Part shown: piece by piece, positions 12,184 to 63,866 of the stretch
Position numbering within the stretch: position 1 is the stretch's first letter
How the letters are laid out: every line of letters starts with the position of its first letter
Assembly (NCBI GenBank): GCA_964503265.1
Contig: CAZCYO010000002.1
Coordinates: 258,604-322,603, forward strand
Direction: 5' to 3'
DNA length: 64,000 nucleotides
DNA from: an uncultured Gammaproteobacteria bacterium
GTDB taxonomy: Bacteria > Patescibacteriota > Microgenomatia > Levybacterales > UBA12049
Notes under the pieces: generated by a model
Database searches by the model: none
Seen by the model: only the letters and a program-made list of their open reading frames with translations
What the model was told of the DNA's origin: nothing
Made by a program: the position numbers and the translations under genes

Positions 12184-12533
12184 CTATTTATATAGCATAA
12201 CTCATAAAGATTGTAACTATTATGTCTTCTATAATATAAATAACTCCTTATATTTTGTAATTGAAACAAAGAACGTTAAGTTTTTGCGGAGTGAATGTTC
12301 AGGGGGAATCCGGCGTACTGCCGAAGGGGGCGGACAATCCCCCGATAAATGAACGAAGCAAAAATAGTCCGCAGGTGCCCTTTGGGTATCGACTTTCACT
12401 TACAAAAGAGTTTTGGTACTTTTTCGGCAAAAAGTACGATAATGAAAACTACTAATAGGATTTATCTAATAGATCCTCAATCTAGTTGAGGATGACAAGT
12501 AATAGATAGTCACAAATAACAGAGTGAAAGAGA

Positions 12534-19154: not shown

Positions 19155-19286
19155 AATACTCCTTTCGCAGTATATACTACCAATTGCATATATTGAATGC
19201 AATAATGCTTAATCAAATCTGTCATCCTCGACCTGATCGAGGATATATACAATAGATTCCTACATTATAACTGCTATAATACTCAA

Positions 19287-22671: not shown

Positions 22672-22870
22672 GTCATTCTGGAAAGTAAGCAGAACCAGGT
22701 ATAGGCTTGTACTTGGCGAAGCGCTCTTTACCAGAATCATTGTATTTTACTATGGAATGCGATCCTGAGCAATGATCTAGACCTTGTCATTCTGGAGCAA
22801 GTATTAACGCAGCTATAGAATCCCAATTTAGTGTAAGATCCTATCGTGATAGTTTCCACTCCAGGATGAC
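22672..22870. repeat. Composite MITE-like element, family A (terminal GTCATTCTGG / CCAGGATGAC inverted repeats, internal second unit)
   Basis: Starts cgtcattctggaaagtaagc..., contains ttgtcattctggagcaagt...ctatagaatccc, ends ccaggatgac. Related copies at 25252-25338, 5622-5653, 33805-33884. Confidence 0.6.
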
Positions 22871-22877
22871 ATTAAAT

Positions 22878-23250: not shown

Positions 23251-24072
23251 CTATGCAGCAATCTGTCGGAAGGCAGCTGCATGATGACCGCGGAGTCTGA
23301 GATGTGGGGAGATCGTAGATATAAATCTCTGTGATTCTCGCCCGTAAACCCGCCACTGAAATGAATCATGCTGTGTACGACGCACCTGACCATCGATGAC
23401 AATTTCAGAACCACTTGGTTTTGTCATCTCGACAGTTCCACCAAACCGATTTGCCATAACACGAAGCAGGTCTTCTTTCGTCGATGAAATTCCATTCCCA
23501 AGTCCGGAAGGGTGATTTGGATTAGTTGGATTATGGATTGAACCACGAGCATCGTAAATACCTGCTACCCATGTATCGAGTAACACTAATCGCTCATAGT
23601 CGCTACTCCCTGAAACTTCTTCTTCATATTCTCCATTTTTATAGGCATGATATATCTCCATTTTTTCTTCATTTGAATTAGCATCACGTATATCTCTATA
23701 TGCTCTAAGTATTCCTTTTCTTCCAGGTGTGAAGTTATCAATACCTTCGACAAATACACCCGCACGTTTCCCTTGCACTTCAATTCGCACTGACTCTCCT
23801 CTTCTTCTCATGCTGATTTCGTTTCCACCTTGTTGAAACATGGGCATGAGGTTGGCAATAACGAGTGGGTCATCATCTGAATATCGCACCGCTAATGAAG
23901 GATATGTATAGATATTCCCGTAGTCGAGTTTGGATTTTTGCACTAAACTAAGTTCTCCAGCAATTGATAACATTCCCCCACGGTGTTCGGAGGGAGAAAG
24001 TCTTAGCGTTTCTTTCGTTTCAGGGATAATTACTTCATGTGGTATTGGAAGTGGTCCATGTTCACGAGGCAT
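23251..24072 (-). CDS. High-GC hypothetical protein with C-terminal LAGLIDADG-like homing-endonuclease fold (second acidic residue replaced: VAGIYDARGS)
   Basis: LLDTWVAGIYDARGSIH... plus downstream KEDLLRVMANRFGGTV...WRVYGRESQRFISTISPHLRL resemble single-motif LAGLIDADG domains. N-terminal 150 aa unknown. GC about 50% versus about 35% host. Confidence 0.5.
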   Translation of the reverse strand: MPREHGPLPIPHEVIIPETKETLRLSPSEHRGGMLSIAGELSLVQKSKLDYGNIYTYPSLAVRYSDDDPLVIANLMPMFQQGGNEISMRRRGESVRIEVQGKRAGVFVEGIDNFTPGRKGILRAYRDIRDANSNEEKMEIYHAYKNGEYEEEVSGSSDYERLVLLDTWVAGIYDARGSIHNPTNPNHPSGLGNGISSTKEDLLRVMANRFGGTVEMTKPSGSEIVIDGQVRRTQHDSFQWRVYGRESQRFISTISPHLRLRGHHAAAFRQIAA

Positions 24073-24192
24073 ACACTCACACTATAGTTCTGTTACAGAT
24101 AAATTTCAAGTCGATATTCCGGAGTCACAGTATAACGGTGATCTGAGCATGCTTTAATCTCGATTACTATCCTAATAACAACGAATTAAATG

Positions 24193-24277
24193 CGGAGAGG
24201 GCGAGATTCGGACTCGCGAAACCTTGCGGTTCGGCGGTTTAGTAAACCGCTGCACTCGACCACTATGCGACCTCTCC
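24193..24277 (-). tRNA. tRNA-Ser-like (type II, long variable arm, G73), anticodon loop UUACUAA (anticodon ACU), atypical C55 in T-loop
   Basis: Minus strand GGAGAGG-UC-GCA-UAGUGGUCGAG-UGC-A-GCGGU-UUACUAA-ACCGC-CGAACCGCAAGGUUUC-GCGAG-UCCGAAU-CUCGC-CCUCUCC-G folds as a cloverleaf closely parallel to E. coli tRNA-Ser. A34 and C55 are unusual, so it may be a pseudo-tRNA. Confidence 0.55.
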
Positions 24278-24369
24278 TTAATAAATTGTTCTAACGTTCT
24301 TATTATTCTGTTTTCCGTGATGTTGCCTCCGGCTCGACCAACCCTAAAGGGTCTCGCTTCGCTCGATAT

Positions 24370-24426
24370 GCGACCTCTCCATAATTTACTTAAGTTTTAG
24401 GTCGTCCTGTTGAGGGCGACCTCTCC
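24370..24426 (-). repeat. Two partial duplications of the tRNA 5' end (GGAGAGGTCGC)
   Basis: GCGACCTCTCC recurs at 24370-24380 and 24416-24426 (and at the tRNA itself, 24267-24277). The intervening sequence contains tRNA-like fragments (GGUCGAG). Confidence 0.55.
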
Positions 24427-24451
24427 GAGTCACGATATTGTAGCAGAAAAT

Positions 24452-25258
24452 CTATATTTGACCAAGAAGATATGCCTTTCGTTCTTCCTTTGTGAATCGT
24501 TCAATAGCATAACGAAGCATGGTTCTTGGCATAGTTTTATAATATTTATTTAGAAATTCTTTTTCTGCTTTTTCTGAAACTCTTTTTCCAACTTCTCGAA
24601 GCAACCATCCTACTGCTTTATGGATAAGGTCATGCGTATCATGAAGAAGGATCTCAGCGATTGTAAATGTAATATCTGATTCTCCATTCATAATAAAGGG
24701 AAAGGTAGCGATAATGGAAATTCTTCTCTCCCAAAGATTTTCTGAATAAGCAAGTTTCGTTAATACCTCTGTATGTTTGTCATTCCCGTGAAAATCACGA
24801 TCCTCCGAAGGGGGACGGGAATCTATTTGAAGAGATCCCGTGTCTCGTCGAGGATGACATTGAGTGTAGAGATATCCTCCCACAATATACCCAGCTGAGC
24901 TGTCGATTAAATCCCAGTTATTAATATAGACAGTATTTGCTAGATATAGATCGTATATCTCTTTTTTAACTGTCTCATCTCCTTTTTGGAATTGATGAAT
25001 AAGAATAAAAAGCGCGATAAGACGTTCTTCGTGATATTTCGACTGGAGCAATGATAGAACATCTGTGCGCGAAAGCTCGAAATAGCGTTTAGCAACCGCT
25101 CGAGATTGTGGAACAGTAAGTCCTACAAAAACATCTCCATATCCGTACTCTCCTTCTTTTGTTTTAAAAAACCTCTGTGAAGCTTTCGCTTTTTCAAGAC
25201 TTCCAAGTGTATGAATTTCTTCTTTAATATTTTCTAATGTGTTCATAGATGATGTCAT
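24452..25258 (-). CDS. DNA alkylation repair glycosylase, AlkD/HEAT-like repeat family, carrying an in-frame 85-bp repeat insertion
   Basis: AlkD-like helices (WDLIDSSAGYIVG, KAVGWLLREVGK). Residues about 131-160 (YTQCHPRRDTGSLQIDSRPPSEDRDFHGND) are encoded by a copy of the family-B palindromic repeat. Confidence 0.7.
   Translation of the reverse strand: MTSSMNTLENIKEEIHTLGSLEKAKASQRFFKTKEGEYGYGDVFVGLTVPQSRAVAKRYFELSRTDVLSLLQSKYHEERLIALFILIHQFQKGDETVKKEIYDLYLANTVYINNWDLIDSSAGYIVGGYLYTQCHPRRDTGSLQIDSRPPSEDRDFHGNDKHTEVLTKLAYSENLWERRISIIATFPFIMNGESDITFTIAEILLHDTHDLIHKAVGWLLREVGKRVSEKAEKEFLNKYYKTMPRTMLRYAIERFTKEERKAYLLGQI
24778..24862. repeat. MITE-like palindromic repeat, family B, inserted in-frame within the alkD-like CDS
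   Basis: tgtcattcccgtgaaaatcacgatcctccgaagggggacgggaatctatttgaagagatcccgtgtctcgtcgaggatgacattg is about 85% identical to the intergenic copy at 63783-63866. Confidence 0.75.
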
Positions 25259-25338
25259 TCTGGAAAGTAAGCGGAGCGCTCTTTACCAGAATCGATTCCG
25301 GACCACGATTTAATCGGTGCGGATGAGCCGGAATGACA
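25252..25338. repeat. MITE-like element family A with 12-bp TIRs (ATGTCATTCTGG / CCGGAATGACAT)
   Basis: Intergenic between the alkD-like gene and the FKBP gene. Internal CGATTTAATCGG motif shared with the element at about 3320-3345. Confidence 0.6.
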
Positions 25339-25454
25339 TTACACATTATAACCCATTTCTTACTCGACAAAGTCTGTTTTGTCTGATAAGGTATGTCTAT
25401 ATTCTTCGAGCAAAGAGAGAAGTAGTTCTCATTTCATTCGAACGATAATCATAC

Positions 25455-25781
25455 ATGGATAAATTAAAAATTGAAGAAATAAAAATAGGAAAAGGCGAAG
25501 TGGTCAAAGAAGGCGACCATGTCATCATGCACTATACAGGCTGGCTTGAGGATGGCACGAAATTTGATTCATCATATGATCGTGATCAAGCATTTGAAAC
25601 AGCTATCGGTGTCGGATACGTTATTAAAGGCTGGGATATGGGAGTACCTGGAATGAAAGTTGGAGGGAAAAGAAAACTTACTATTCCCCATCATTTAGGA
25701 TACGGTAAATATGGCGTTGAACCTTCCATTCCTCCCCTAGCAACGCTCATTTTTGAAGTAGAACTCCTCGGAAAGAAATAA
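25455..25781 (+). CDS. FKBP-type peptidyl-prolyl cis-trans isomerase
   Basis: FKBP signature ([21 protein letters not shown]...[27 protein letters not shown]...LIFEVELL). Confidence 0.9.
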
Positions 25782-25855
25782 GTATTCTCTGTAGGTTTCC
25801 GAGAGGCAGAAAAGCGTTCGCTTCTCCACCCCTCGGTATTGTCGTCTTCTGTAAG

Positions 25856-26674
25856 CTACGGCATCACCCTTCGTACATGGCTCAAAGATCCAAACATGCC
25901 AGTGCGAACAAGGTGTGCCGGAATAACGAAGTCACCGTTCATAAGTTTGCCTGTAACTTCCATGCCGAGCACTTGCGTAGGCAAGAAAGCCCGCAGTTGA
26001 GGACTCAGCGAGTCCTCATACCAGACTGGACAGCCAGCGTCTTCAGGAAGCTGGAACGAGCTGAAGAAGATCCAGTGATCCACGTCAACGAGTCCCCTCT
26101 GCGGGATGCCACCAGTATGAGCATCGATCCCCGGCAGCCGGAAGACGTTAGGTTCGGATGTGCGATACCACACCATGATCGGTGTAGCTTTCATCGCCTC
26201 GTAGTTGTCAAAGCAACACAGTGCGAACGAAAACCCCGGATAGCTCTCCGCGTAGAACGAGACGAGCTCTGGGCTAATCTTCGGCCGCTGGTTCTCAGGG
26301 ACCTGCAGAAGCGCTGCCGGGATGAGAGTCGGATCAGAGGTCAGAAGCACGGTATAGATACCATGCCTGAAGACCTCAACAGATTTCGCCCCACTCGAAC
26401 GAGTCGAGAACCCAAGTGACCTCAAAGGAGGAGAGATGGCATACCGCATATCACGCATGATACGTGGACAACTTTCCGTCGGGATGAAGTTCGCCTGCGT
26501 CACCGGCTCACCACCCGGGATATGCAGAAGCATACAGTTGGGACCGTAGGGAGAGAGATTCTTGGCAGAGTTCTCATACACCATAACACGGATCTCTCCG
26601 AGTGTGGGATGATTGACTTCACCGAGAAATACGGATGTTCCGCTCAATTGTGCTGGAGCACTCGTAACACACAT
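25856..26674 (-). CDS. High-GC hypothetical protein (272 aa)
   Basis: Longest ORF spanning an about 0.85 kb patch of about 55% GC. No recognisable domain. The overlapping plus-strand ORF 25877-26419 is Arg-rich and looks antisense. Confidence 0.35.
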   Translation of the reverse strand: MCVTSAPAQLSGTSVFLGEVNHPTLGEIRVMVYENSAKNLSPYGPNCMLLHIPGGEPVTQANFIPTESCPRIMRDMRYAISPPLRSLGFSTRSSGAKSVEVFRHGIYTVLLTSDPTLIPAALLQVPENQRPKISPELVSFYAESYPGFSFALCCFDNYEAMKATPIMVWYRTSEPNVFRLPGIDAHTGGIPQRGLVDVDHWIFFSSFQLPEDAGCPVWYEDSLSPQLRAFLPTQVLGMEVTGKLMNGDFVIPAHLVRTGMFGSLSHVRRVMP

Positions 26675-26918
26675 GGGATAGTTCTCCTTCTTGCGTTCGA
26701 GGCCATCTATCTCGAGTCATTCATCAGTCTCTCGGCGTTGCAGTAACTGGCATTCCTCCTTATGCCTGTACTACGTATAAGACTGATTGATGGCTTTCTA
26801 TTTCGATCATGTCGAAACAGAAAATCACCAACCAATCGTTGGTATACAGACAAAGGATAGCTATTAAAGAGCGACGCGAGAATTTTATCAAACCAAGAAG
26901 TAAATATCAACTATAGGG

Positions 26919-28854: not shown

Positions 28855-28897
28855 TGTCATCCTGGAGACCCGATGAACATCGGGACGATAGGATCTC
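28855..28897. repeat. MITE-like repeat fragment (TGTCATCCTGGAGACCCGATGAACATCGGGACGATAGGATCTC)
   Basis: Shares TGTCATYCTGGAG start and GATAGRATC end with family A. Internal hairpin CCCGATG...CATCGGG. Confidence 0.5.
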
Positions 28898-28947
28898 ACA
28901 ACAAATGGGATGTTACCACTTCATGTTCATGTTAGAATGACAACATC

Positions 28948-39704: not shown

Positions 39705-39794
39705 TGTCATTGCGAGGAACGAAGTCGAAGATCCTCGAACGGGGCAATCTCTTATTATTTTCTATAAGATCGCCGCGCTTCGCTCGCGATGACA
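39705..39794. repeat. MITE-like element family C (TGTCATTGCGAGG...CTCGCGATGACA termini)
   Basis: tgtcattgcgaggaacgaagtcgaagatcctcgaacgg...cgcgcttcgctcgcgatgaca. Half-copies at about 7128-7145, 19214-19240, 12470-12500. Confidence 0.55.
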
Positions 39795-41879: not shown

Positions 41880-42019
41880 GAAAGTTAAAAGTGAGAAGCA
41901 AAAAGGCAAAAGCACAATTAAAAATTACGAACTAGATCCTGAATCAAGTTCAAGATGACAAGTCAGTTTTTACTTTTGAACTGTATTTTTGAGTTTTGAC
42001 TTTTACTTTTTGCATTCCT
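41880..42019. repeat. Palindromic intergenic repeat (AAAGTTAAAAGTGAGAAGCAAAA...TTTTGACTTTTACTTTTTGC), family D
   Basis: Related palindromic copy at 44397-44490 (aaaagttagaagtcaaaa...ttttgacttttcagtttttacttct). Confidence 0.5.
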
Positions 42020-44490: not shown

Positions 44491-45408
44491 TTAGTATAAC
44501 TCTTTCAAAACCTCAATAATTCTCTGCAAACTAAGATTGGTTGGAACTTGATTGGGATTTTTCGATCCTCCATTTAGTAACATTTTCTTTGAAACATGAA
44601 GAAACCACGTCGCATCGGGATCCATTTTCGAAAATCGTTCATATGCGAGAGTCAGATCAATATCAGTAGTTTTGTTTTCTGGAGGACGGACTTTAATACG
44701 GACAAATCCACCTTTAGGATCTTTTCGAACAACCAAATGATACCCCATTTTTTGTGCAAGTTTTAATACTGAGTCATTTGCGGTATCGAACCCTACCCCT
44801 TTTCCCCTCTTCGTTTCAAAGACTATTCCTTTACCATCAATCTCTTCTTCAGCAGATATTCTATTTTCAAATGTATGAAAAAGCGAATCAAGCACCTCGC
44901 GTCCAAATTCCACATAATAATCATGCTCTTCAGGTTTAAGTAATTTTAGTCCTTCAAGAACTCCCAGTATGGTAAACTCATACCGATCGGCAGCGGCTTC
45001 GGGCCAAAATACTTCTTTAAAATGATCTGTTTCAACAATAAATTGTACAACACGTGATACCGCCTTTTTATGAACATCTGTCATAGAAGATCCATGTGCT
45101 TCAATGGTAGTTTTTACATAATCCCATGCACGACTAGTCCCCGATACACTCGAATCAGATGTTTCATGATGATCAAGTGGTCCAAGTCCTGTATCTACAT
45201 GAATTACTTCATCTTTTCCTTGTACTTCAATCGTTTCAGTATTCTCACCTAGTTTCGCCATTTGATATTTGCCAGGTCCTGTTCTTCTCCCACCTGCCGG
45301 AACAAATTCGACAGCAGCATCTCCCCACCCAGAAAGAAACTTTTTAATAACCCAAACTCCGCCAATTGCATCCCAATCGGGGGAAATATGTGTAACAATA
45401 ATTTTCAT
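44491..45408 (-). CDS. DHH-family phosphoesterase
   Basis: Motif I HISPDWDAIGG, DHH motif (GLGPLDHHE). Confidence 0.7.
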   Translation of the reverse strand: MKIIVTHISPDWDAIGGVWVIKKFLSGWGDAAVEFVPAGGRRTGPGKYQMAKLGENTETIEVQGKDEVIHVDTGLGPLDHHETSDSSVSGTSRAWDYVKTTIEAHGSSMTDVHKKAVSRVVQFIVETDHFKEVFWPEAAADRYEFTILGVLEGLKLLKPEEHDYYVEFGREVLDSLFHTFENRISAEEEIDGKGIVFETKRGKGVGFDTANDSVLKLAQKMGYHLVVRKDPKGGFVRIKVRPPENKTTDIDLTLAYERFSKMDPDATWFLHVSKKMLLNGGSKNPNQVPTNLSLQRIIEVLKELY

Positions 45409-45508
45409 TATGGCAAGTATAGCGAATTATGACTCAGTTGCAAAGCTGCAAGCCTCAAGTTGCAAGATCTTATGAAGCTTGAATCTTGCGACTTGAGGCT
45501 AGTATGGC

Positions 45509-46009
45509 TTGACAAACTTTTCTGAATCTACCATCATGGTAGTAGCTACTAAAGTATTTATGGATCCAAAAACCTTCGCTAAATTAGATCCGAAATTAAG
45601 AGAAACATATGAACGTGTGATGGGAACATCTGTGCCACAAAAACCAACTATTATTCCAGCTCCTCAAACAAATACGACACCTCCACCTGCTACCACCCAG
45701 GCTACACCAGTAGAAACTGCAACAAACGCTGTTGAACATACATCATCACCTCCACCAGTAACCGTTCCAGTAGTAACCAAAGAAACAACCGAAGGTCAAT
45801 CTACTACTCCCACTCGAACGCATAACACAATTGCAGTTCATACTGCTGTATCAACACCCTCACATCACGACGAAAAAACTGAAATATATGAACCAACAAC
45901 AGGAGTTCCTGCATGGAAAAAAATTCTCTTTATCGTTTTGGGGATTATCTTTTTCGGCACCTACGCGACTTTTTGGCTACTCTTCTTTAAAGTAAAACTC
46001 CCGTTCTAG
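45509..46009 (+). CDS. Hypothetical Thr/Pro-rich protein with C-terminal TM
   Basis: ORF preceded by a strong 17-bp hairpin (45446-45493). C-terminal hydrophobic helix. Confidence 0.45.
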   Translation: MTNFSESTIMVVATKVFMDPKTFAKLDPKLRETYERVMGTSVPQKPTIIPAPQTNTTPPPATTQATPVETATNAVEHTSSPPPVTVPVVTKETTEGQSTTPTRTHNTIAVHTAVSTPSHHDEKTEIYEPTTGVPAWKKILFIVLGIIFFGTYATFWLLFFKVKLPF

Positions 46010-46447
46010 AAGTTAGTAGATAATAGTTAGAAGATAGAATGAATAAGATTAATTCATTTAAAGATCTTTATGCTTGGCAAAAAGGACACGCTCTTGTACT
46101 CCTTGTCTATCAAATCACTAACCATTTACCTCAACGAGAACAATTTGCACTTATCAGCCAAATGCAACGCGGAGCAATTTCAATAATAAGTAATTTAGCT
46201 GAAGGATTCTCAAGAAGAGGAATCAAAGATAAAATGCATTTCTATTATATAGCTCTTGGATCTACTACAGAAATTGAAAACCAATTGTTAGTTTGTAAAG
46301 ATCTAGGTTATATTAATGAAATTATATTCAACGATGCAGATTTATTAATAACCGAGGTAAAAAAATTAATAAATGGACTAGTTAAAAGCACCAAAAATCG
46401 TAGTTAACCACTATCTCCTAACTCCTATCTTTTAACTACTCTTCCTA
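46008..46447. mobile_element. Inverted-repeat-flanked cassette carrying four-helix-bundle gene, copy 2
   Basis: Left arm gaagttagtagataatagttagaagatag versus right arm reverse complement gaagagtagttaaaagataggagttaggagatag. The right arm overlaps the proS stop region. Confidence 0.45.
46039..46407 (+). CDS. Four-helix-bundle protein (23S rRNA IVS protein family), paralog 2
   Basis: ...SQMQRGAISIISNLAEGFSR...LGSTTEIENQLLVCKDLGYI pattern. Confidence 0.75.
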   Translation: MNKINSFKDLYAWQKGHALVLLVYQITNHLPQREQFALISQMQRGAISIISNLAEGFSRRGIKDKMHFYYIALGSTTEIENQLLVCKDLGYINEIIFNDADLLITEVKKLINGLVKSTKNRS

Positions 46448-47630
46448 TCACTTCGTCTAAACTAACTAATTCTATCTTTTCTTCGACTCTTTTCTTCCAT
46501 TCTATCTGCTCGCCGGTTTTATTACTTACAACAAGGCGAACTGGTATTCCTAGTAAATCTGCGTCTGCAAATTTCTCACCAGCGCCTATATCTCGATCAT
46601 CAAAAAGCACTTCTATACCCGCTTTTTGTAACTGATCATATACTTCATTTGCCTTCTCATTAAGACCAACTAAATGAACTTGAAAAGGCGCGACACTTTC
46701 AGGCCAGATAATTCCTTTTTCGTCATGTGATGCCTCTACAATCGCTCCGACTAGTCTCGTCATGCCAATACCATAACTTCCAAACCACACAGGCTTTTTG
46801 CTTCCTCCGGAATCTGTGTAGTATGCTCCCATTTTCTCAGCGTACGTTGTACCAAGTGGGAAAATGTTTCCAACCTCAATTGATTTAACTGATTCAAGTG
46901 TTGGATTATTCATGTCTTCATCGGTCATAATTTCTTTATTTTTCCAGAACTTCCATCCATCAGCGTAATAAATCACGTCTTCTCCCGCATCAGTTTTGAG
47001 TTGATATTCATGAGTATGATTTTTAGTAAAGACACCACCATCTGCTTCTGCTATTACAACATCAAGTCCCATTCGTTTAAATGAAGCCATATATGCATCA
47101 GATACCTCCCAATAATATTTCATGAGATCTTCTTCAGTTGCGTGAGCACTATATAGATCTTTCATGAGAAATTCTCGACCACGTAAAATTCCAGATTTTG
47201 CTCGAAGTTCTTGACGAAATTTTGTTGAGAAATGATAGAGTTTTATTGGAAGATCTTTATAACTATTTAAATGTTTACGAATTAAATCCATGACGATTTC
47301 TTCATGAGTAAATGACAGGGCATATTCTCTCTCCTCTTTTTTAAATTGATACATTACTTCAGCAGCACTGTCCCATCGCCCTGTTTCATTCCAGATCTCT
47401 TTAGGATGCAGTAATGGCATGAGAACTTCCTGTGCTCCAGTCAGATCCATTTCTTCACGAACAATTTGTTCGATTTTTCGCTCCACACGGCGCCCAAGTG
47501 GAAGCAGGGTGAATGAACCCGCCATTAATTTATCAATATATCCCCCTCGCATGAGAAGTTGTGCATTAATCGCGACTTCTTCAGCAGGTGCACTTCTTAC
47601 TGTTTTTGCAAATGATTGTGAATATTTCAT
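46425..47630 (-). CDS. proS: Proline--tRNA ligase (bacterial type lacking editing insertion)
   Basis: Class II motifs (FRQELRAKSGILRGREFLMKD), strong similarity to the ProRS N-terminus (HEEIVMDLIR). Confidence 0.85.
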   Translation of the reverse strand: MKYSQSFAKTVRSAPAEEVAINAQLLMRGGYIDKLMAGSFTLLPLGRRVERKIEQIVREEMDLTGAQEVLMPLLHPKEIWNETGRWDSAAEVMYQFKKEEREYALSFTHEEIVMDLIRKHLNSYKDLPIKLYHFSTKFRQELRAKSGILRGREFLMKDLYSAHATEEDLMKYYWEVSDAYMASFKRMGLDVVIAEADGGVFTKNHTHEYQLKTDAGEDVIYYADGWKFWKNKEIMTDEDMNNPTLESVKSIEVGNIFPLGTTYAEKMGAYYTDSGGSKKPVWFGSYGIGMTRLVGAIVEASHDEKGIIWPESVAPFQVHLVGLNEKANEVYDQLQKAGIEVLFDDRDIGAGEKFADADLLGIPVRLVVSNKTGEQIEWKKRVEEKIELVSLDEVIGRVVKR

Positions 47631-47858
47631 AAAAAAACCTCGTCACTGCATTCCACAATTACTATGTGAAATACAAGGACGAGGCAATCTCGTGGTACCA
47701 CCTTGTTTTTCCGCCAGTTGGCGGACTCATTACTCTTTTACGGTTTTTGCTCCGTACTGCTTCTCGCAGTCAGCCCCGATGTAAATTCGGGATCCCGTAT
47801 GAAAACTATCATCGAGACTCATCTGGTAGGATGCCAGACTATAACGCTTTATAAATTT
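47631..47858 (-). promoter_or_regulatory. T-box riboswitch leader (tRNA-Pro responsive) with terminator
   Basis: Minus strand contains the T-box sequence AAGGUGGUACCACGAG (forward 47689-47704). Terminator CCTCGTC...GACGAGG + U7 (47631-47684). Candidate specifier AUCCUACC (CCU Pro codon). Confidence 0.7.
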
Positions 47859-47886
47859 ATTATACAGTCAATTCATTGTTTGTCAA
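47859..47886 (-). promoter_or_regulatory. Extended -10 promoter (TTGACA-16-TGnTATAAT) driving the T-box leader/proS
   Basis: Minus strand TTGACAaacaatgaattgacTGTATAAT. Confidence 0.55.
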
Positions 47887-47928
47887 TCTACGCTTTACAT
47901 TTATATTATTACCGCTATAATTCGTTCC

Positions 47929-48282
47929 ATGTCAGAGAAAGTAAAATTTAATTTTCTTGAATTTGAAAGTGCAGAAGATGGCGAAGGCAGAAATGGCTAT
48001 AGCCTGCAAGCCACTCCAGGTTTAATGAAAGATATTCCTCTCATGACAGAGTATTTAAAATATGGTGTTGGCAATGGAAGAGAAATAACAGTAAAGCAAG
48101 GTCCTGAATTAACGACTCTTCTTAAGGTCGAAGAACTAGATGTTTATGGTGATGCTCCATCTAATACGAAGATAGATATCGCAAGACAAATCGCAGAAGG
48201 ACTTATCAAATATCATAACCAAAATCCTTTTGACGAAATTCGAATTGAATATCCTCACCGTTCGATTACACCTCAGAAATAA
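47929..48282 (+). CDS. Hypothetical small protein (117 aa)
   Basis: ORF only. Confidence 0.4.
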   Translation: MSEKVKFNFLEFESAEDGEGRNGYSLQATPGLMKDIPLMTEYLKYGVGNGREITVKQGPELTTLLKVEELDVYGDAPSNTKIDIARQIAEGLIKYHNQNPFDEIRIEYPHRSITPQK

Positions 48283-48314
48283 CTAAAATGCGATGTGAAA
48301 GCATAGGAGAAACG

Positions 48315-49313
48315 CTACTCGTTTTTTTTCTTAACTGCATGCCCACCAAACTCTCTTCGTAGTGCAGCCACCATTTTCGCGGCAAATGAATCTCGAATGT
48401 TTGGGTCTATCTTTGATCTTCGTCTAAAATCAAGTGATTGCTCGATATTCTCAATCGGAACTCCTTCTTTTTTCGCTTCTTGAATCGTCCACTCACCTTC
48501 CCCTGTCGCATCAATCTCACCTATAATATCTGACAATGTATTATCTTTTTCAAGAGCATCTCGTGCACGATCAATGAGAAAGCTATCGACGATCGTTCCG
48601 TGCTGCCAGAGCTTTGATACTTCGAGTAAGTCTATATCATATGGAGCTTTCTCAAGTACACCAAACCCCTCTCCGATCGCTTGCATCATGCCATACTCAA
48701 TGCCATTATGCACCATCTTTACGAAATGTCCTGCTCCACCAGTTCCGAGATATGCATGCCCACCGTTTGGTTTCGCTAAACTATCAAGAAGAGAACTAAT
48801 CTCTTCATAAGCACTTTTATCCCCACCAACCATCATCGGATATCCTTCTTTCTCTGCAATTACTCCACCCGATACGCCAATTCCTAAAAATCGAACGTGT
48901 TTTTCTTTAAAAAGATTCGCGCGTCTTTCTGTATCATGAAAATTTGCATTCGCACCATCGATCACAATAGCTTCGTTATTTGTCATTCCGGTCCCGCCTG
49001 ACGGGATCAAGACTTCTCCGGAATCTTTTTCCGATGTAAGAATGCCAAGTGCTTCCTGAAGAATTTGCTCACTTGCATCACCTGATGGCAGCATGGACCA
49101 AATAACTTTTGGTGACTCAAGACATGAAACAGCATCTACAACTGTATCCTTCGCAGATAGCTTACCATCTAATTTCTTATCAGTCATACTCTTAAAAAAT
49201 TCTTCGACCACATCTTTTGAACGATTCCACACTACTACCTCATGTCCATCACGAAGTAACTTCTCAACCATCCGCGTTCCCATTTTTCCAAGCCCCAAAA
49301 ATCCTAGTTTCAT
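48315..49313 (-). CDS. gnd: 6-phosphogluconate dehydrogenase (decarboxylating), short YqeC-type
   Basis: N-terminal Rossmann GFLGLGKMG, 6PGDH C-domain (HFVKMVHNGIEYGMMQ). Confidence 0.85.
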   Translation of the reverse strand: MKLGFLGLGKMGTRMVEKLLRDGHEVVVWNRSKDVVEEFFKSMTDKKLDGKLSAKDTVVDAVSCLESPKVIWSMLPSGDASEQILQEALGILTSEKDSGEVLIPSGGTGMTNNEAIVIDGANANFHDTERRANLFKEKHVRFLGIGVSGGVIAEKEGYPMMVGGDKSAYEEISSLLDSLAKPNGGHAYLGTGGAGHFVKMVHNGIEYGMMQAIGEGFGVLEKAPYDIDLLEVSKLWQHGTIVDSFLIDRARDALEKDNTLSDIIGEIDATGEGEWTIQEAKKEGVPIENIEQSLDFRRRSKIDPNIRDSFAAKMVAALRREFGGHAVKKKNE

Positions 49314-49314
49314 A

Positions 49315-50253
49315 TTACTTATTCTGAACTTGTTTTACCGCATTTTCAAGTCCTACTAACGCGTTTGCAACTGTAGCTATTTCCTTATTTCGTTTAAATA
49401 GTTCTTGAACTACACCAATTCCTTGTCTAATATGTGCTGTTTGATACGAATTCTGAGGAGTATGAGTAGTTTGGCCATATGCAAAATATGTGATGGCCAT
49501 AATAACTTGTTGTATAGGAAGTGGAATATCGTTGGCAGATACAATATCAAAGCGACTGTTTCCAGCAATAATCTTGTTTGCTATTCCTAATGCATCTGCT
49601 CCCCATTCTTCTAAAAGTTGGACATCTTCAGTCTTTACTTTTGGAATTTTAAATTGATTGGGATCTTCTTTCAAACTAAGTGGAATTTCGTCAGGATTTT
49701 TGTCTTGATCCTCTAATACTGTTTCCTCATCAGTTTCTGTTTGTTCGGGCCAAACCTGTTGATACGATTCTTTCTTAATTTTTCTCAATGGTTTTACATC
49801 AATTTCTGTTGCGATACGAAGTGCTATTTCATGACCTGCTCCAAGCGCAAGAGAGGTAGTTCTTGCAATATCTCCCCATTCGTTTTTCTTACTTGGACTT
49901 TTATCTGCAATAGATGCTCCCCAAAATAACGCAGTAATTGCTTCAAGCTCGTCAGGGCCTACAACTCTAGTATTATTACTATTTTGTTCAAGTTCAACTA
50001 ACTTAAGTTTATATATATCTCCAACTAATCTTCTGCCATCAAATGGTGGCAACGATCCATATTCACCAATTAAATCACCAACTGCAATTCTGTCGGCTAT
50101 AGGAAATATAGTATTTCTTTCATTAACAAATTCACCAAGAGGAGATAAATATTGTTTTAATCTCGGATCTACAATTGAATCATATCGTTCAGAAGAAAAT
50201 GGTTTAGACTCTCGAGGTTGTGTTATTCCCAGTTCTGAATTTCTCGCACTCAT
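49315..50253 (-). CDS. Hypothetical protein between zwf and gnd (positional analogue of OpcA)
   Basis: 312-aa ORF tightly packed between zwf and gnd. No motif recognised. Confidence 0.4.
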   Translation of the reverse strand: MSARNSELGITQPRESKPFSSERYDSIVDPRLKQYLSPLGEFVNERNTIFPIADRIAVGDLIGEYGSLPPFDGRRLVGDIYKLKLVELEQNSNNTRVVGPDELEAITALFWGASIADKSPSKKNEWGDIARTTSLALGAGHEIALRIATEIDVKPLRKIKKESYQQVWPEQTETDEETVLEDQDKNPDEIPLSLKEDPNQFKIPKVKTEDVQLLEEWGADALGIANKIIAGNSRFDIVSANDIPLPIQQVIMAITYFAYGQTTHTPQNSYQTAHIRQGIGVVQELFKRNKEIATVANALVGLENAVKQVQNK

Positions 50254-50271
50254 TCGCGACCATTATACATT

Positions 50272-51741
50272 TTATAGCCATTTTTTGCCATCTTTTTTAA
50301 GTAACTCTTCGGCACTTTTGGGCCCCCATTCTGAATCTTTATAGATCTGCATCTTTGCACCATTTTTCTCCCATCCTTTGAGAATATTCGTGATAAATGT
50401 CCATGAGCTTTCTAATTCATCAGATCTATTAAATAACATTTGATCTTGAGCCAAAATATCGAGTAGTAATTTTTCGTATGCATCTGCCCCTTTTTCTCCA
50501 AATTCTTCTGCATATGAAAATTTCATGTCGACAGTTCCAAGTGCTAGTTTCGTCCCAGGTTTTTTCGCAATCACTTGCAGTCCAATACCTTCATCTGGTT
50601 GAATCCGAATCGTCAAAACATTTCCAATTTCTGGACAGCCATACTCTTTAAATAGTAAATGACATGTTTGAATAAATACTATTTTTATCTCAACGACGTC
50701 TGCTGGCATTTTCTTTCCTGCTCGCAGGTAAAATGGAACATGTTCAAAACGCTTCGTATCGACAAATAACTTCATAGCCATAAACGTCTCTGTATCAGAG
50801 TCTTTCGAAACATCCTCTTCCTCAGTATAGCCATCGTATTGTCCGCGAACGACAGATTCATCCACTTTTTCAGGATCGATACAGCGAATCGATTGAATCG
50901 CTTTGACCCGCGCATCACGGACACTTTCTTTCGAAAAGCCTTTGGGCTGCTCCATCGCAACTGCAGCAACAAGTTGAAGTAAATGATTCTGTGCAACATC
51001 ACGTAGTATTCCCACACCATCAAAAAACATTCCCCGTCCACTAACCCCTCGTTTCTCACCAAAGGTTATTTGTACTTGCTCAATATACGTATTATTCCAC
51101 ACTGGTTCAAAAATCCCATTTGCGAAACGGAATGCGATCATGTTCTGGACTGTTTCCTTCCCTAAATAGTGATCGACACGATAAATTTGTTTTTCTTCAA
51201 ATATTTCAGCGAGCATTCGGTCAAGTGATCTGGCAGTCTCTAAATCTTTTCCAAATGGTTTTTCAATTGCTACCCGTGTCCACTTAGAAATATCTTGTTT
51301 GCCCTGCGTGGCTTGGTCGAAGAGGGGTCCACATCCTTCTGAAAGTTTGGTCTTTTTTAAATGATCCAGAATGAAGGTATAGTTATCCGGAGGAGTAGCA
51401 AGATAAAAGAGTCGAGTGATACATGCGCCAATTTGCATATCAAATCCAGTTAATTTTTCAATAAGCTTTTCGTATCCTCCAACTTCATTGAACATTCCTT
51501 GTTGGTAATAAACATTTTGCATGAATTTTTCCCATAATTCTTTTTGAGTAGCAGATACAGGAATTTCTTTCGTTAAATATGCACGAAATGCTTCATAACT
51601 GAGATCACGACGAGAAAATCCAATAATAAAAAATGTTTCTGGAAGGAGTTTTTTAACGTAGAGTGAAAATAATGCAGGAAATAATTTGTGACGAGCCAGA
51701 TCGCCAGTCGCACCGAAGATGACCATAACAAATGGTGACAT
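50272..51741 (-). CDS. zwf: Glucose-6-phosphate 1-dehydrogenase
   Basis: GATGDLA NADP motif, RVDHYLGKE active-site motif. Confidence 0.95.
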   Translation of the reverse strand: MSPFVMVIFGATGDLARHKLFPALFSLYVKKLLPETFFIIGFSRRDLSYEAFRAYLTKEIPVSATQKELWEKFMQNVYYQQGMFNEVGGYEKLIEKLTGFDMQIGACITRLFYLATPPDNYTFILDHLKKTKLSEGCGPLFDQATQGKQDISKWTRVAIEKPFGKDLETARSLDRMLAEIFEEKQIYRVDHYLGKETVQNMIAFRFANGIFEPVWNNTYIEQVQITFGEKRGVSGRGMFFDGVGILRDVAQNHLLQLVAAVAMEQPKGFSKESVRDARVKAIQSIRCIDPEKVDESVVRGQYDGYTEEEDVSKDSDTETFMAMKLFVDTKRFEHVPFYLRAGKKMPADVVEIKIVFIQTCHLLFKEYGCPEIGNVLTIRIQPDEGIGLQVIAKKPGTKLALGTVDMKFSYAEEFGEKGADAYEKLLLDILAQDQMLFNRSDELESSWTFITNILKGWEKNGAKMQIYKDSEWGPKSAEELLKKDGKKWL

Positions 51742-51804
51742 AGAGATGATTATAGACTCCTTATACCCTAAACGCTAGACGCTAGTTTCTAATCAGTTGT
51801 TACG

Positions 51805-52146
51805 TTACTTTTTTGTACTTAAATATGCGGCAGGAAGAAGTCCGAGTAATGCACCACCACCGATGGCGAGTACTCCTGATAGAACGACAAGGAGAATAGG
51901 CCCGAAGTTATTCATAATGTTTTTTTTCTTAATTAACAGATATGAAACAGTAATACATGAAATAATTGAGACCAGCGAACCGACACGAACTCCCCCTTCA
52001 TATCCTTGGATTGAACTAATTATCGAACCTAAAATCCCAGCAGCTAACGCTCCAGCAAGTACTATCAGAATAAGATACGCAATGTAAAAGCCAAATGCTT
52101 CTTTAGAAGTACGTTTATATTTAAAATCAGTTAATTTCTTGAACAT
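51805..52146 (-). CDS. Small membrane protein (3 TM)
   Basis: Hydrophobic ORF. Confidence 0.4.
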   Translation of the reverse strand: MFKKLTDFKYKRTSKEAFGFYIAYLILIVLAGALAAGILGSIISSIQGYEGGVRVGSLVSIISCITVSYLLIKKKNIMNNFGPILLVVLSGVLAIGGGALLGLLPAAYLSTKK

Positions 52147-52206
52147 AGAATTATTGTAATTTTTTTTTGAAAAACAAACAAGAGAGAAAAATCATGTACA
52201 TACTAA

Positions 52207-52998
52207 CTATAGTATGTTCTGGTCAGTTATTAACACTGTTTTTTTTGCAATTTCTGGTCTTTTTAAAAAGCGTGAAGGGATATCTTCCTCAGGTCCATCA
52301 GAAAACATCATTCGTATCGCATCTTTTTTATCCTGACCAAAAACGAGTACAACGATAATATCCATCATTGATAGTCCAAGGAAAGTCATACTTATTCGCT
52401 CTCTAAATGTCCCAGATTCATCATTATATTCAGAAACTAATACATCCTTTTGTTCTGCATCGAACATCGGATTATGAAAAGCTTGTCCCGAACTTAATGA
52501 GGTATCACTTCTATTCCCAGCGATCCCAGCAGTGTGGCCATCAAGACCAATCCCAAGAGTCGCAATACTTTTTTGATATGTCGTATTTAAACTTCGCAAC
52601 TGTTCATCGTAGGAGTTAGCAGAATCACTACGACTCTTATTTTCCTGAAGTATCGGATAAAACGGTATCCCTCTCATTTCCGTATAGCGAAGAAGTCCTG
52701 TCTCTTTAAGCATTTTCTCATTACTTTTATCGTGAAACCTATCACCAAATCGTTCATCAACGAGTCCGATTGCTCCAGGCCTAAGTACTTCTTCGTGTGC
52801 AAGATCTTTATATAACTCTTTTGGTGTTCTTCCTCCAGATAAATATAAAACAGTTTTACTGTCAACGAGTGTATACAGAAGTTCTTTTGCGAGGGTAAAT
52901 CCTTTCGTCACAGTGGGGACAACTGAAATAATCATTCCAGATTGCTCATAAGTGTTTCGCTCTTTGTCTTTTACGATACTAAATAAAGATTTCTGCAT
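52207..52998 (-). CDS. pgl: 6-phosphogluconolactonase (NagB/RpiA/Pgl fold)
   Basis: LSGGRTP and GIGLDGHTAGI motifs. Confidence 0.8.
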   Translation of the reverse strand: MQKSLFSIVKDKERNTYEQSGMIISVVPTVTKGFTLAKELLYTLVDSKTVLYLSGGRTPKELYKDLAHEEVLRPGAIGLVDERFGDRFHDKSNEKMLKETGLLRYTEMRGIPFYPILQENKSRSDSANSYDEQLRSLNTTYQKSIATLGIGLDGHTAGIAGNRSDTSLSSGQAFHNPMFDAEQKDVLVSEYNDESGTFRERISMTFLGLSMMDIIVVLVFGQDKKDAIRMMFSDGPEEDIPSRFLKRPEIAKKTVLITDQNIL

Positions 52999-53043
52999 GG
53001 ATTAGCCATAAGTATACAGCATTTGAGGGATAATTTGTGAAGA

Positions 53044-59387: not shown

Positions 59388-60311
59388 CTACTTACTACTT
59401 GCCTTGGTTGCTTTTTCTTTCGCTGCTTTATTTTCTGCTTTAAGAGATGCGAGTTTATCCTGGGTATCTTTTTCTTTCTTTGCTACTGCTGCTTTTTCTG
59501 CTGCTACTTTTTCAGCTTCTGCTTTTGCGACTACTGCTGCTGCTGCTTTTGCGACTTTTTCTACTTCATCTTGAACTTTCTTCGCTTGATCAGCTACTTC
59601 TTTTCCTGCTTGTGTTCGTCCTTCGATCCATGCGTCTACGATATGACTTAAAATAAGTTTGATTGAACCAAGTGCGTCATCGTTTGCTGGAATAGCATAG
59701 TTAATAACTGTAGGATCAGCGTTTGTATCTGTAATTCCAACTGTTTTAATACCTGTCGTAAGTGATTCTCGAACAGCGATATCTTCCTGGTGTGTATCGA
59801 TAATAAATACTGCATCTGGAACCTTGGTCATATCAGCAACTCCACCATAGAAAATTTCTAGTTTTGAGATCTCACGCTCAAAAAGTGCAATTTCTTTTTT
59901 TGTATATTTTGCTTTTTCTTCTTTACTTTCAAGGGTTTTTTTCAGCGTATGGAGTTTTTTGAAATTCTTCATAACTTCTGGGAAATTAGTTAAAAGCCCA
60001 CCAATCCAACGATTCGTTACATGAAACATACCTGCAGCTCCAGCGTCTGTAGCTCTCTTCATTTCTTCTCGAACTGCTCCTTGAGCCTGTTTTTTTGATC
60101 CGAGAACGATCATTGTGCCGCCTTTTTTAGCGATATCACGCACGAAAACAGCAGCTTCTTCTAAGCCTTCTTTCGTTTTTGCTAAATCGATGATATGAAC
60201 GTTATCGCGAGCTTCGAAAATATAGTCGCGTGCTTTGGGGTTGGAACGAGTAACCTGATGCCCAAAATGGCATCCTGCTTCAAGTAATTCTTCAAGTGTA
60301 ATTGTTCGCAT
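59388..60311 (-). CDS. rpsB: 30S ribosomal protein uS2 with about 90-aa Lys/Ala/Glu-rich C-terminal extension
   Basis: TLEELLEAGCHFGHQ start region. Tail AKKVQDEVEKVAKAAAAVVAKAEAEKVAAEKAAVAKKEKD... Confidence 0.9.
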   Translation of the reverse strand: MRTITLEELLEAGCHFGHQVTRSNPKARDYIFEARDNVHIIDLAKTKEGLEEAAVFVRDIAKKGGTMIVLGSKKQAQGAVREEMKRATDAGAAGMFHVTNRWIGGLLTNFPEVMKNFKKLHTLKKTLESKEEKAKYTKKEIALFEREISKLEIFYGGVADMTKVPDAVFIIDTHQEDIAVRESLTTGIKTVGITDTNADPTVINYAIPANDDALGSIKLILSHIVDAWIEGRTQAGKEVADQAKKVQDEVEKVAKAAAAVVAKAEAEKVAAEKAAVAKKEKDTQDKLASLKAENKAAKEKATKASSK

Positions 60312-60422
60312 ATGGTTGTGTCCTTTATTCCTCCATCTAACAGTTCCCAATTATTGGGCAAGGACATCAATTAGATGTGTGAGATAGTGAGTATTATAGC
60401 TAATTTATTAACGAAACGCAAT

Positions 60423-63782: not shown

Positions 63783-63866
63783 TGTCATTCCCGCGAAGGT
63801 GACTATCCTCCGAAGGGGGACGGGAATCTATTGATAAGATCCCCGATCAAGCCGGGGATGACAATG
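63783..63866. repeat. MITE-like palindromic repeat, family B (intergenic copy)
   Basis: tgtcattcccgcgaaggtgactatcctccgaagggggacgggaatctattgataagatccccgatcaagccggggatgacaatg. Two internal hairpins (ATTCCCG/CGGGAAT, ATCCCCG/CGGGGAT). Confidence 0.7.

Follow-up and report, generated by a model that had tools for sequence, protein, structure and literature searches.

A TGTC-tagged palindromic repeat dimer lying in-frame within an alkD-like gene of a Patescibacteria genome

How does a stretch of sequence that resembles an intergenic repeat come to lie inside the reading frame of a conserved DNA repair gene, and what, if anything, does it do there? The question is raised by a 64,000-nucleotide stretch of contig CAZCYO010000002.1 (assembly GCA_964503265.1, GTDB lineage Patescibacteriota), referred to here as the window, in which an alkD-like gene, predicted to encode a DNA alkylation repair enzyme, contains a short palindromic segment that has a close counterpart between genes elsewhere in the same window. 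The reading that we develop below is that this segment is very likely a non-autonomous dimer of repetitive extragenic palindromic (REP) units, of the kind carrying a CGTC or TGTC tag, which was inserted in-frame and is tolerated as a passenger without a function of its own.

The gene lies on the minus strand, where the longest open reading frame (ORF), 24452..25258, encodes 268 aa. The true start is likely to be at 25246 (MNTLEN), which gives a product of 264 aa identical to the database protein P0001, and the identical 264-aa protein is found in three public sources, namely NCBI, ENA, and Logan. The four codons by which the longest ORF exceeds the database protein (MTSSMNT... instead of MNT...) are due to a second dimer, at 25253-25338, whose ATGACA end supplies an in-frame ATG at 25258; this dimer sits in the divergent promoter region between alkD and a gene for an FKBP-type isomerase. 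The alkD product matches the Pfam family PF08713 (DNA alkylation repair enzyme) with an E value of 2.9e-56, and the match is broken into two stretches at the insert. On the coding strand, the insert reads TGT CAT ... AAT GAC A and is translated into the 27 residues of CHPRRDTGSLQIDSRPPSEDRDFHGND, which correspond to residues 134-160 of the 268-aa ORF, or 130-156 of the 264-aa protein.

The insert and its intergenic twin, at 63783-63863, share the same ends, TGTCAT...ATGACA, and their global alignment gives 67 identical positions out of 82 (82%), with 45/50 (90%) in the first 50 nt. When the insert is compared with the rest of the window, its highest local score is 51, and 30 shuffles reached 19 at most. 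Both copies retain the outer 7-bp stem of the long unit (ATTCCCG/CGGGAAT), whereas the short hairpin, which is perfect in the twin (-6.7 kcal/mol, z -3.0), has become eroded in alkD (-2.2 kcal/mol, z +0.25). A preliminary description of this DNA had reported an insert of 85 bp, adding about 29 residues, with about 85% identity to the intergenic repeat and with both internal hairpins in common. The insert and the similarity stand, but its size is 82 nt (27 residues) and the identity is the 82% given above, while of the hairpins it is the outer stem of the long unit that is shared, the short one having decayed. The segment is not an assembly artefact, because alkD, insert included, does not differ by a single base between two independent assemblies (Logan SRR12487046 and ENA ERZ4216102), and this explanation was rejected.

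Neither the 23-nt core common to the insert and the twin nor a codon-degenerate pattern for the alkD peptide WDLIDSSAGYIVGGY had a match in the metagenome scans, which accordingly yielded neither population variants nor an unoccupied alkD site, and the twin had no blastn match among plasmids. An Rfam scan of the whole window at gathering thresholds returned no family, and an E-value scan of 24050-25500 returned a tRNA alone; the repeat is not a described RNA family.

That the segment is an addition to the enzyme, and not a native loop, emerges from the comparison with the 120 best homologues, which are 54-67% identical and come from Patescibacteria and relatives. Among them, the loop that separates the conserved motifs ...IVGxYL and VLxKLAxS most often has 7 residues (LxDKPKD), against 35 in the window protein. 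The closest homologue, P0002 (68% identity), has a 10-residue loop without REP-like sequence, and a native AlkD loop was rejected on these grounds. The insert peptide is present in no aligned sequence except the identical P0001. An AlkD-alignment scan of a genome collection that did not include the source genome returned 80 loci, none of which can hold an insert of full size, because they match over 666-732 nt, too short for it when the window gene measures 792 nt.

The host gene otherwise has the appearance of an intact member of its family. Its reading frame is full-length, as the preliminary description had it, and the product retains all 30 family-invariant alignment columns (30/30) together with most near-invariant residues; W111, D115, and R175 align with W109, D113, and R148 of the AlkD from B. 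cereus. An AlphaFold 2 (AF2) model computed from 113 sequences has a mean predicted local distance difference test score (pLDDT) of 93.9 and a predicted template modelling score (pTM) of 0.89, and Foldseek aligns it to the B. cereus AlkD crystal structures with template modelling (TM) scores of 0.77-0.80. Taken together, sequence and model place the protein in the AlkD family, with its HEAT-like repeat fold and the conserved Trp/Asp and Arg of the active-site cleft. The insert is the sole low-confidence part of the model (pLDDT 65-71), where it is predicted as coil joining two confident helices (111-130 and 152-166); the alignment and the model both agree with the earlier proposal of an insertion between helices. 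The insert aligns to residues ~126-129 of B. cereus AlkD, 13-16 residues past D113 on the same helix, and hence occupies the turn where the helix that bears the catalytic Trp/Asp at its N-terminus reaches its C-terminal end. Judging from helix geometry, it would lie ~20 Å from the active-site residues.

The insert is one of ten tagged loci in the window, collected in Table 1 with the host gene. Six of these loci are dimers of 81-90 nt (starting at 22785, 24778, 25253, 28855, 39705, and 63783), all with the tags on the outside, and four are single units (12472, 19220, 41935, and 48981). The plan of a unit consists of TGTC, an AT-initiated stem, a loop, and a complementary arm ending in AT, followed by C. 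The stems vary among copies (ATTCCCG, ATCCCCG, ATTCTGG, ATTCCGG, ATCCTCAA, ATTGCGAG, and others) yet stay complementary, and neither the tag nor the AT changes. A strict search, requiring the tag and a perfect 7-bp AT-initiated stem, with dinucleotide-preserving shuffles as the control, found 8 units in the window against 0.4 in the shuffles, and 37 against 4.3 in all the DNA fetched. Every strict unit of the window opens with TGTC, and the base after the stem is C in 7/8 of them (ATC), with later bases varying. AT-initiated stems of 8-9 bp with loops of 4-5 nt are seen in the single units of the window and at 3649-3724 of contig L030. The possibility that the elements are built to keep reading frames open was considered and rejected, with 22/60 frames open across the elements overall and 9/36 for the dimers, against 17% for random 81-mers.

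Table 1. Tagged palindromic elements of the window and the alkD-like host gene (positions are those of the window)
Feature	Position	Strand	Remarks
Single unit TGTC-ATCCTCAA-CTAGA-TTGAGGAT-C	12472..12497	-	8-bp stem, 5-nt loop; downstream of ORF
Single unit TGTC-ATCCTCGA-CCTG-ATCGAGGAT	19220..19245	+	intergenic
Dimer TGTCATTCTGGAG...CTCCAGGATGACA	22785..22871	.	intergenic
AlkD-like DNA alkylation repair gene, intact	24452..25246	-	PF08713, 264 aa
Head-to-head dimer of TGTC-tagged palindromic units (REP-like, Rickettsia-element-like), in-frame in alkD	24778..24859	.	82 nt; minus-strand peptide CHPRRDTGSLQIDSRPPSEDRDFHGND
Long unit of the alkD dimer: TGTC tag, stem ATTCCCG/CGGGAAT, tail C	24778..24823	+	25-nt loop with nested TCCTCC-GAAG-GGGGGA hairpin
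Short unit of the alkD dimer: TGTC-ATCCTCG...CGGGAT-C	24834..24859	-	hairpin eroded relative to the intergenic twin
Dimer, stems ATTCTGG / ATTCCGG	25253..25338	.	directly upstream of alkD start
Dimer	28855..28942	.	fills the gap between two convergent ORFs
Dimer, ATTGCGAG stem class	39705..39794	.	8 nt downstream of ORF
Single unit TGTC-ATCTTGAA-CTTGA-TTCAGGAT-C	41935..41960	-	downstream of ORF
Single unit within 6-phosphogluconate-dehydrogenase-like ORF 48315..49313 (minus strand)	48981..49025	+	part of 19-20 aa in-frame insert KDSGEVLIPSGGTGMTNNEA
Intergenic twin of the alkD insert	63783..63863	.	81 nt; long unit 63783-63828, 9-nt spacer, short unit 63838-63863

In-frame insertion recurs in a second conserved gene of the window, which encodes a protein resembling 6-phosphogluconate dehydrogenase (6PGDH; PF03446/PF00393) and carries the single unit at 48981-49025. 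Among 121 aligned sequences, this insert is found in the window gene and in P0121, which is 96% identical, and P0126 has a different short insert at the site. On contig L090, which is syntenic with 45227-55622 of the window (~78% nt identity), the site is empty and appears as a 57-nt gap; it contains GTGACATT. In the L091 strain, whose gene is 93.7% identical, the insert is the same at 75/75 bases, where ~4.7 differences would be expected.

The AlkD turn, for its part, is also occupied in other genomes. All of the long-loop homologue inserts for which the DNA was examined (7/7) are tagged dimers, one of them decayed (P0099) and one with AATC as its left tag (P0004); except for the latter, the tags are TGTC or CGTC, and the inserts have them on the outside, fall into several stem classes, and start 1 to 6 residues past the conserved YL. 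With the insert-bearing protein as the query, at least 6 extra residues are present at this turn in 38 of the 120 sequences, and no other internal position shows additions of this size. The frequencies obtained with this query, 33% with at least 6 and 21% with at least 13 extra residues, fall to 20% and 10%, respectively, when the insert is deleted from the query. The 33% figure is inflated because a query with the insert favours insert-bearing hits, and the true frequency lies between the two results. On a neighbour-joining tree, the carriers are scattered among sequences with 7-residue loops and the nearest neighbours of the window AlkD have no insert, while the syntenic contigs L083 and L084 (~72% nt identity) have inserts of different classes at different offsets in alkD. 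Independent insertions are much likelier than one ancient event, because the stem classes are discrete and also exist as intergenic families.

Some of these contigs hold further elements. At 2684-2771 of L083, a dimer lies in-frame in a 399-aa Peptidase_C39-like/TPR ORF, where it encodes the peptide CHPEPDEGEARQGRLDSRSQGIPGQARND; its long unit is near-identical to that of the L083 alkD insert. Smaller extended loops at the same turn are seen in the AlkD loci at 8728-9474 of L009 (HHSGKVSSGDCTRNPDSLNP) and at 1622-2341 of L030, the latter with a tagged unit at 2000-2055, and L030 also holds a textbook CGTC-1-like dimer, TGTCATTCCCGCGAAAGCGGGAATC ... GATCCCCGCTTTCGCGGGGATGACA.

The architecture of these units is that of the CGTC-tagged REP superfamily, with its families CGTC-1 to CGTC-4, described by Di Nocera, De Gregorio and Rocco (2013, BMC Genomics 14:522; PMC3733652). 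In that description, the tag CGTC is often replaced by TGTC (also CCTC), the stems of 8-9 bp are "almost invariably" AT-initiated and enclose loops of 4-5 nt, and the units occur mostly as head-to-head dimers with a CCA tail consensus and without a dedicated transposase (PMC3733652). The repeats were reported from 5 phyla, mostly from Alphaproteobacteria, with deviant loops in some species; intragenic dimers code for 20-30 residues and are in excess in genes for DNA synthesis and repair, and the way in which the superfamily moves was left unexplained (PMC3733652). The window units share with it the unpaired end tag, the AT-initiated stem, and the mostly head-to-head dimeric arrangement, as well as 8-bp stems and loops of 4-5 nt in the simple units at 12472, 19220, and 41935, to which the canonical TGTCATTCCCGCGAAAGCGGGAATC of L030 can be added. 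Their distribution is likewise dispersed and mostly intergenic, often just past the ends of ORFs, with some copies in-frame. They differ from the published repeats in having a Patescibacteria host, in that all window tags are TGTC, in spacers of 9-14 nt instead of 1-5 or 20-100, in the many dimers with one long-loop unit enclosing a nested GC-rich hairpin, and in a tail of which only the first base (C) fits CCA.

The same superfamily embraces some of the Rickettsia palindromic elements (RPEs), to which the preliminary description had likened the alkD insert. In R. conorii, RPE-6 was equated with CGTC-1 and RPE-4 with CGTC-4; the CGTC-1 dimers encode SFLRKQES...LDSRFRGND, and single units encode VIPAKAGI / SFPRKRES (PMC3733652). 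The likeness therefore goes beyond analogy, since the unit architecture is that of the superfamily that includes RPE-6 and RPE-4. As with these two, the window elements are palindromic, occur both between genes and in-frame in conserved genes of a reduced genome (alkD and 6PGDH, at positions that the fold can accommodate), and appear to add surface peptide segments. The window insert ends in ...DRDFHGND, to be compared with ...LDSRFRGND in R. conorii, and has the same TGTCAT start, the relatedness resting on the published description and on the peptides. For the interior of the window copy, which includes a long nested loop, no counterpart has been described among the Rickettsia elements, and RPE-1, at about 100-150 bp, is a separate element of greater length.

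Two other systems invite comparison. As in REPINs, the paired REP elements of Bertels and Rainey (2011; PMC3116915), two inverted hairpins are separated by a short spacer and accompanied by a conserved tetranucleotide, and the elements are dispersed, non-autonomous, and lack target duplications; unlike the system of REPINs and REP-associated tyrosine transposases (RAYTs), the window tag is TGTC and not GTAG, and the window is without a RAYT gene. The in-frame MITEs (miniature transposable elements with inverted repeats) of bacteria, such as those of Coxiella burnetii (PMC5896051), are also short, have inverted ends, and can extend or interrupt ORFs. The window elements are distinguished from MITEs by tagged hairpin ends in place of the simple terminal inverted repeats of an insertion sequence (IS), and neither a target-site duplication at the six dimers nor a related, parental IS in the window was found.

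The route by which the alkD gene very likely acquired its present form can be outlined as follows. A REP copy became inserted at the point coding for the turn between the helix with the catalytic Trp/Asp and the next HEAT-like helix, and with whole codons added and no stop in the frame used, the gene stays open. The insert is presumably transcribed and translated, forming a hydrophilic and probably disordered surface loop of ~27 residues. The copies seen today would be survivors, whose landing place was a permissive turn and whose length and frame brought no stop. Such a selective filter fits because the intergenic twin, if placed in the frame of alkD, would bring a TAG stop, and the alkD copy has one extra spacer base. 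A similar constraint accounts for the inserted peptides ending in ...ND/DD (...MT in 6PGDH), since of the three frames across GAATGACA one runs into TGA. We infer that the insert is translated and neutral, and we likewise infer its mode of movement, in which a trans-acting enzyme of the HUH/Y1 type would recognise the hairpin and the tag on single-stranded DNA, as proposed for REPs. Recognition of this type is suggested because the tag is constant while the stems vary but remain complementary.

Several observations weigh against this account. The long unit of the alkD insert, with a 7-bp stem and a 25-nt loop, and the spacers of 9-10 nt fall outside the published modal values, and whole-element folding energies are unexceptional when compared with shuffles (z about -1 to -1.7). 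The six window dimers have no flanking direct repeats, and no empty alkD site from a close relative came to light, the nearest homologue being 68% identical. The window holds no transposase, and tblastn with six RAYT/TIRYT sequences gave no match in it. The hits in two other Patescibacteria contigs, at 11231-11956 of L089 and 6750-7484 of L009, are genes of the Y1_Tnp type (IS200-like, PF01797) within 1-2 kb of alkD; the one in L089 is flanked by GTAG-containing inverted repeats (AGAGGTGTAC..GTAGGACACCTCGGTAAT) and not by TGTC hairpins, and the motif of these flanking repeats is absent from the window. No link between the L089 gene and the TGTC repeats is established, because its flanking repeats are unrelated to them.

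The recurrence at one turn could also mean that the AlkD loop is actively targeted through a preference for sequence or structure, for instance beside GACA/TGTC in the loop codons (Asp-Lys = GAC AAA), an explanation that we regard as unlikely. It draws on the loop being the only internal site with insertions of at least 6 residues among the 120 homologues, on the 10% (insert-deleted query) to 21% (insert-bearing query) of sequences with at least 13 extra residues, and on the scatter of the carriers over the tree with different stem classes, set beside a matching 6PGDH site that is filled in only 3/121 sequences (the window gene, P0121, and P0126). In addition, every inserted AlkD peptide ends in xD, from the GAC of the tag, uninserted loops often read Asp-Lys, and the empty 6PGDH site of L090 contains GTGACATT. 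However, within the loop the insertion point shifts by as many as 5 residues, GACA is too frequent to confer specificity, the xD ending is explained by codon constraints through the TGA stop in one frame across GAATGACA, and in 6PGDH the tag does not adjoin the native GACA; a compact helical repeat protein with a single permissive turn would give the same picture by selection alone. An extension of this idea, which we hold to be distinctly improbable, is that tagged REPs are at present mobile across Patescibacteria with a real target preference, so that the AlkD turn would serve as a landing pad, the terminal GACA would be partly target-derived, and Y1 enzymes like those of L089 and L009 would do the work. 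Elements of the IS200/IS605 type undergo single-strand insertion beside a tetranucleotide. If the extended idea were true, it would provide the first candidate mobilising enzyme and target rule for an orphan REP superfamily, and new protein loops in streamlined genomes would have a measurable source in REP insertion.

The remaining explanations concern the age and the consequences of the insert. Occupation of the same loop in many lineages, the visibly decayed copy in P0099, and the order of the units in the three clear short-plus-long heterodimers (window, P0003, and P0017), where the short one precedes the long one on the coding strand, would all follow from a single ancient insertion that diverged in place and was lost precisely many times. 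This history is nevertheless highly improbable, since the discrete stem classes are not drifted versions of one sequence and also occur between genes of the same contigs, even in the window (ATTGCGAG at 39705 and an ATCCTGAA-like class at 41935); moreover, L083 and L084 differ in class and offset in spite of their synteny, the nearest tree neighbours of the window protein lack an insert, and precise loss would be needed dozens of times. A co-opted insert, whose loop or RNA/DNA hairpin now offers a surface for interactions, pauses translation, or acts as a regulatory structure, is very unlikely as well: the peptide occurs in this lineage alone, the short hairpin is degraded, the model gives the insert low confidence and no secondary structure, and the inserts of homologues share no peptide beyond the residues imposed by the tag, even though the ORF and all invariant residues are kept and the copy in the gene has retained the outer stem of its long unit. 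The unchanged 6PGDH insert of the two strains also speaks for co-option, but this sign of conservation rests on one pair of strains and on another gene. Finally, the insertion may have inactivated alkD and left an incipient pseudogene, considering that 27 residues added to a 237-residue enzyme could disturb folding and that genomes of small populations fix slightly deleterious changes. We give this outcome little credence, as the frame is full-length, the 30 invariant and most near-invariant residues are kept, the AF2 model is confident outside the insert, and the same loop bears inserts in many otherwise conserved homologues. An inserted REP dimer carried as a tolerated passenger thus remains our preferred explanation.

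The kind of repeat and its behaviour are already known, and the novelty is lowered because in-frame REP insertions, notably in DNA-repair genes, have been catalogued across several phyla (PMC3733652). What is new is the host phylum and the recurrent insertion in the AlkD turn. A literature search pairing terms for the Candidate Phyla Radiation (CPR) with terms for the repeats returned no report of REPs, RPE-like elements, or REP-decorated proteins in Patescibacteria/CPR, and no description of repeated colonisation of one AlkD turn was found in the literature. A superfamily known mainly from Proteobacteria, Rickettsia elements included, is in this way extended to the CPR, and the AlkD turn, colonised repeatedly by different repeat classes in numerous lineages, offers a natural experiment on insertion bias versus selective tolerance and on the effect of such loops on enzyme function. 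There is also a practical side for annotation, as the repeats yield spurious starts (alkD 25258), odd "hypothetical" peptides, and length outliers among Patescibacteria proteins.

Other features of the window can be described briefly. A GC-rich island at 25800-26700 has 52-56% GC, against 39.6% for the window, and contains a 272-aa ORF on the minus strand (25856..26674) that has no Pfam match and lies between the FKBP and signal-peptidase genes. Contig L089 has the S26 peptidase, alkD, and FKBP genes without the island, which is possibly foreign DNA. A tRNA-Ser gene occupies 24192-24277 on the minus strand, with the unusual anticodon ACT according to ARAGORN; it scores 50 bits in the local Rfam scan but is missing from the results of the gathering scan of the whole window. 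The 11 nt with which it starts (GGAGAGGTCGC) recur just upstream, at 24370-24380 and 24416-24426, one copy being part of a 19-nt 95% repeat. Adjoining the tRNA is a 273-aa ORF (23251-24072, minus strand) with no Pfam family at E <= 0.01. Lastly, within the 320-aa ORF at 59388..60350 (minus strand), the run at 59400-59575 consists of imperfect CTGCTGC/TTTTTC repeats with a 15-nt period, and probably represents a low-complexity protein segment rich in Ala, Lys, and Glu.

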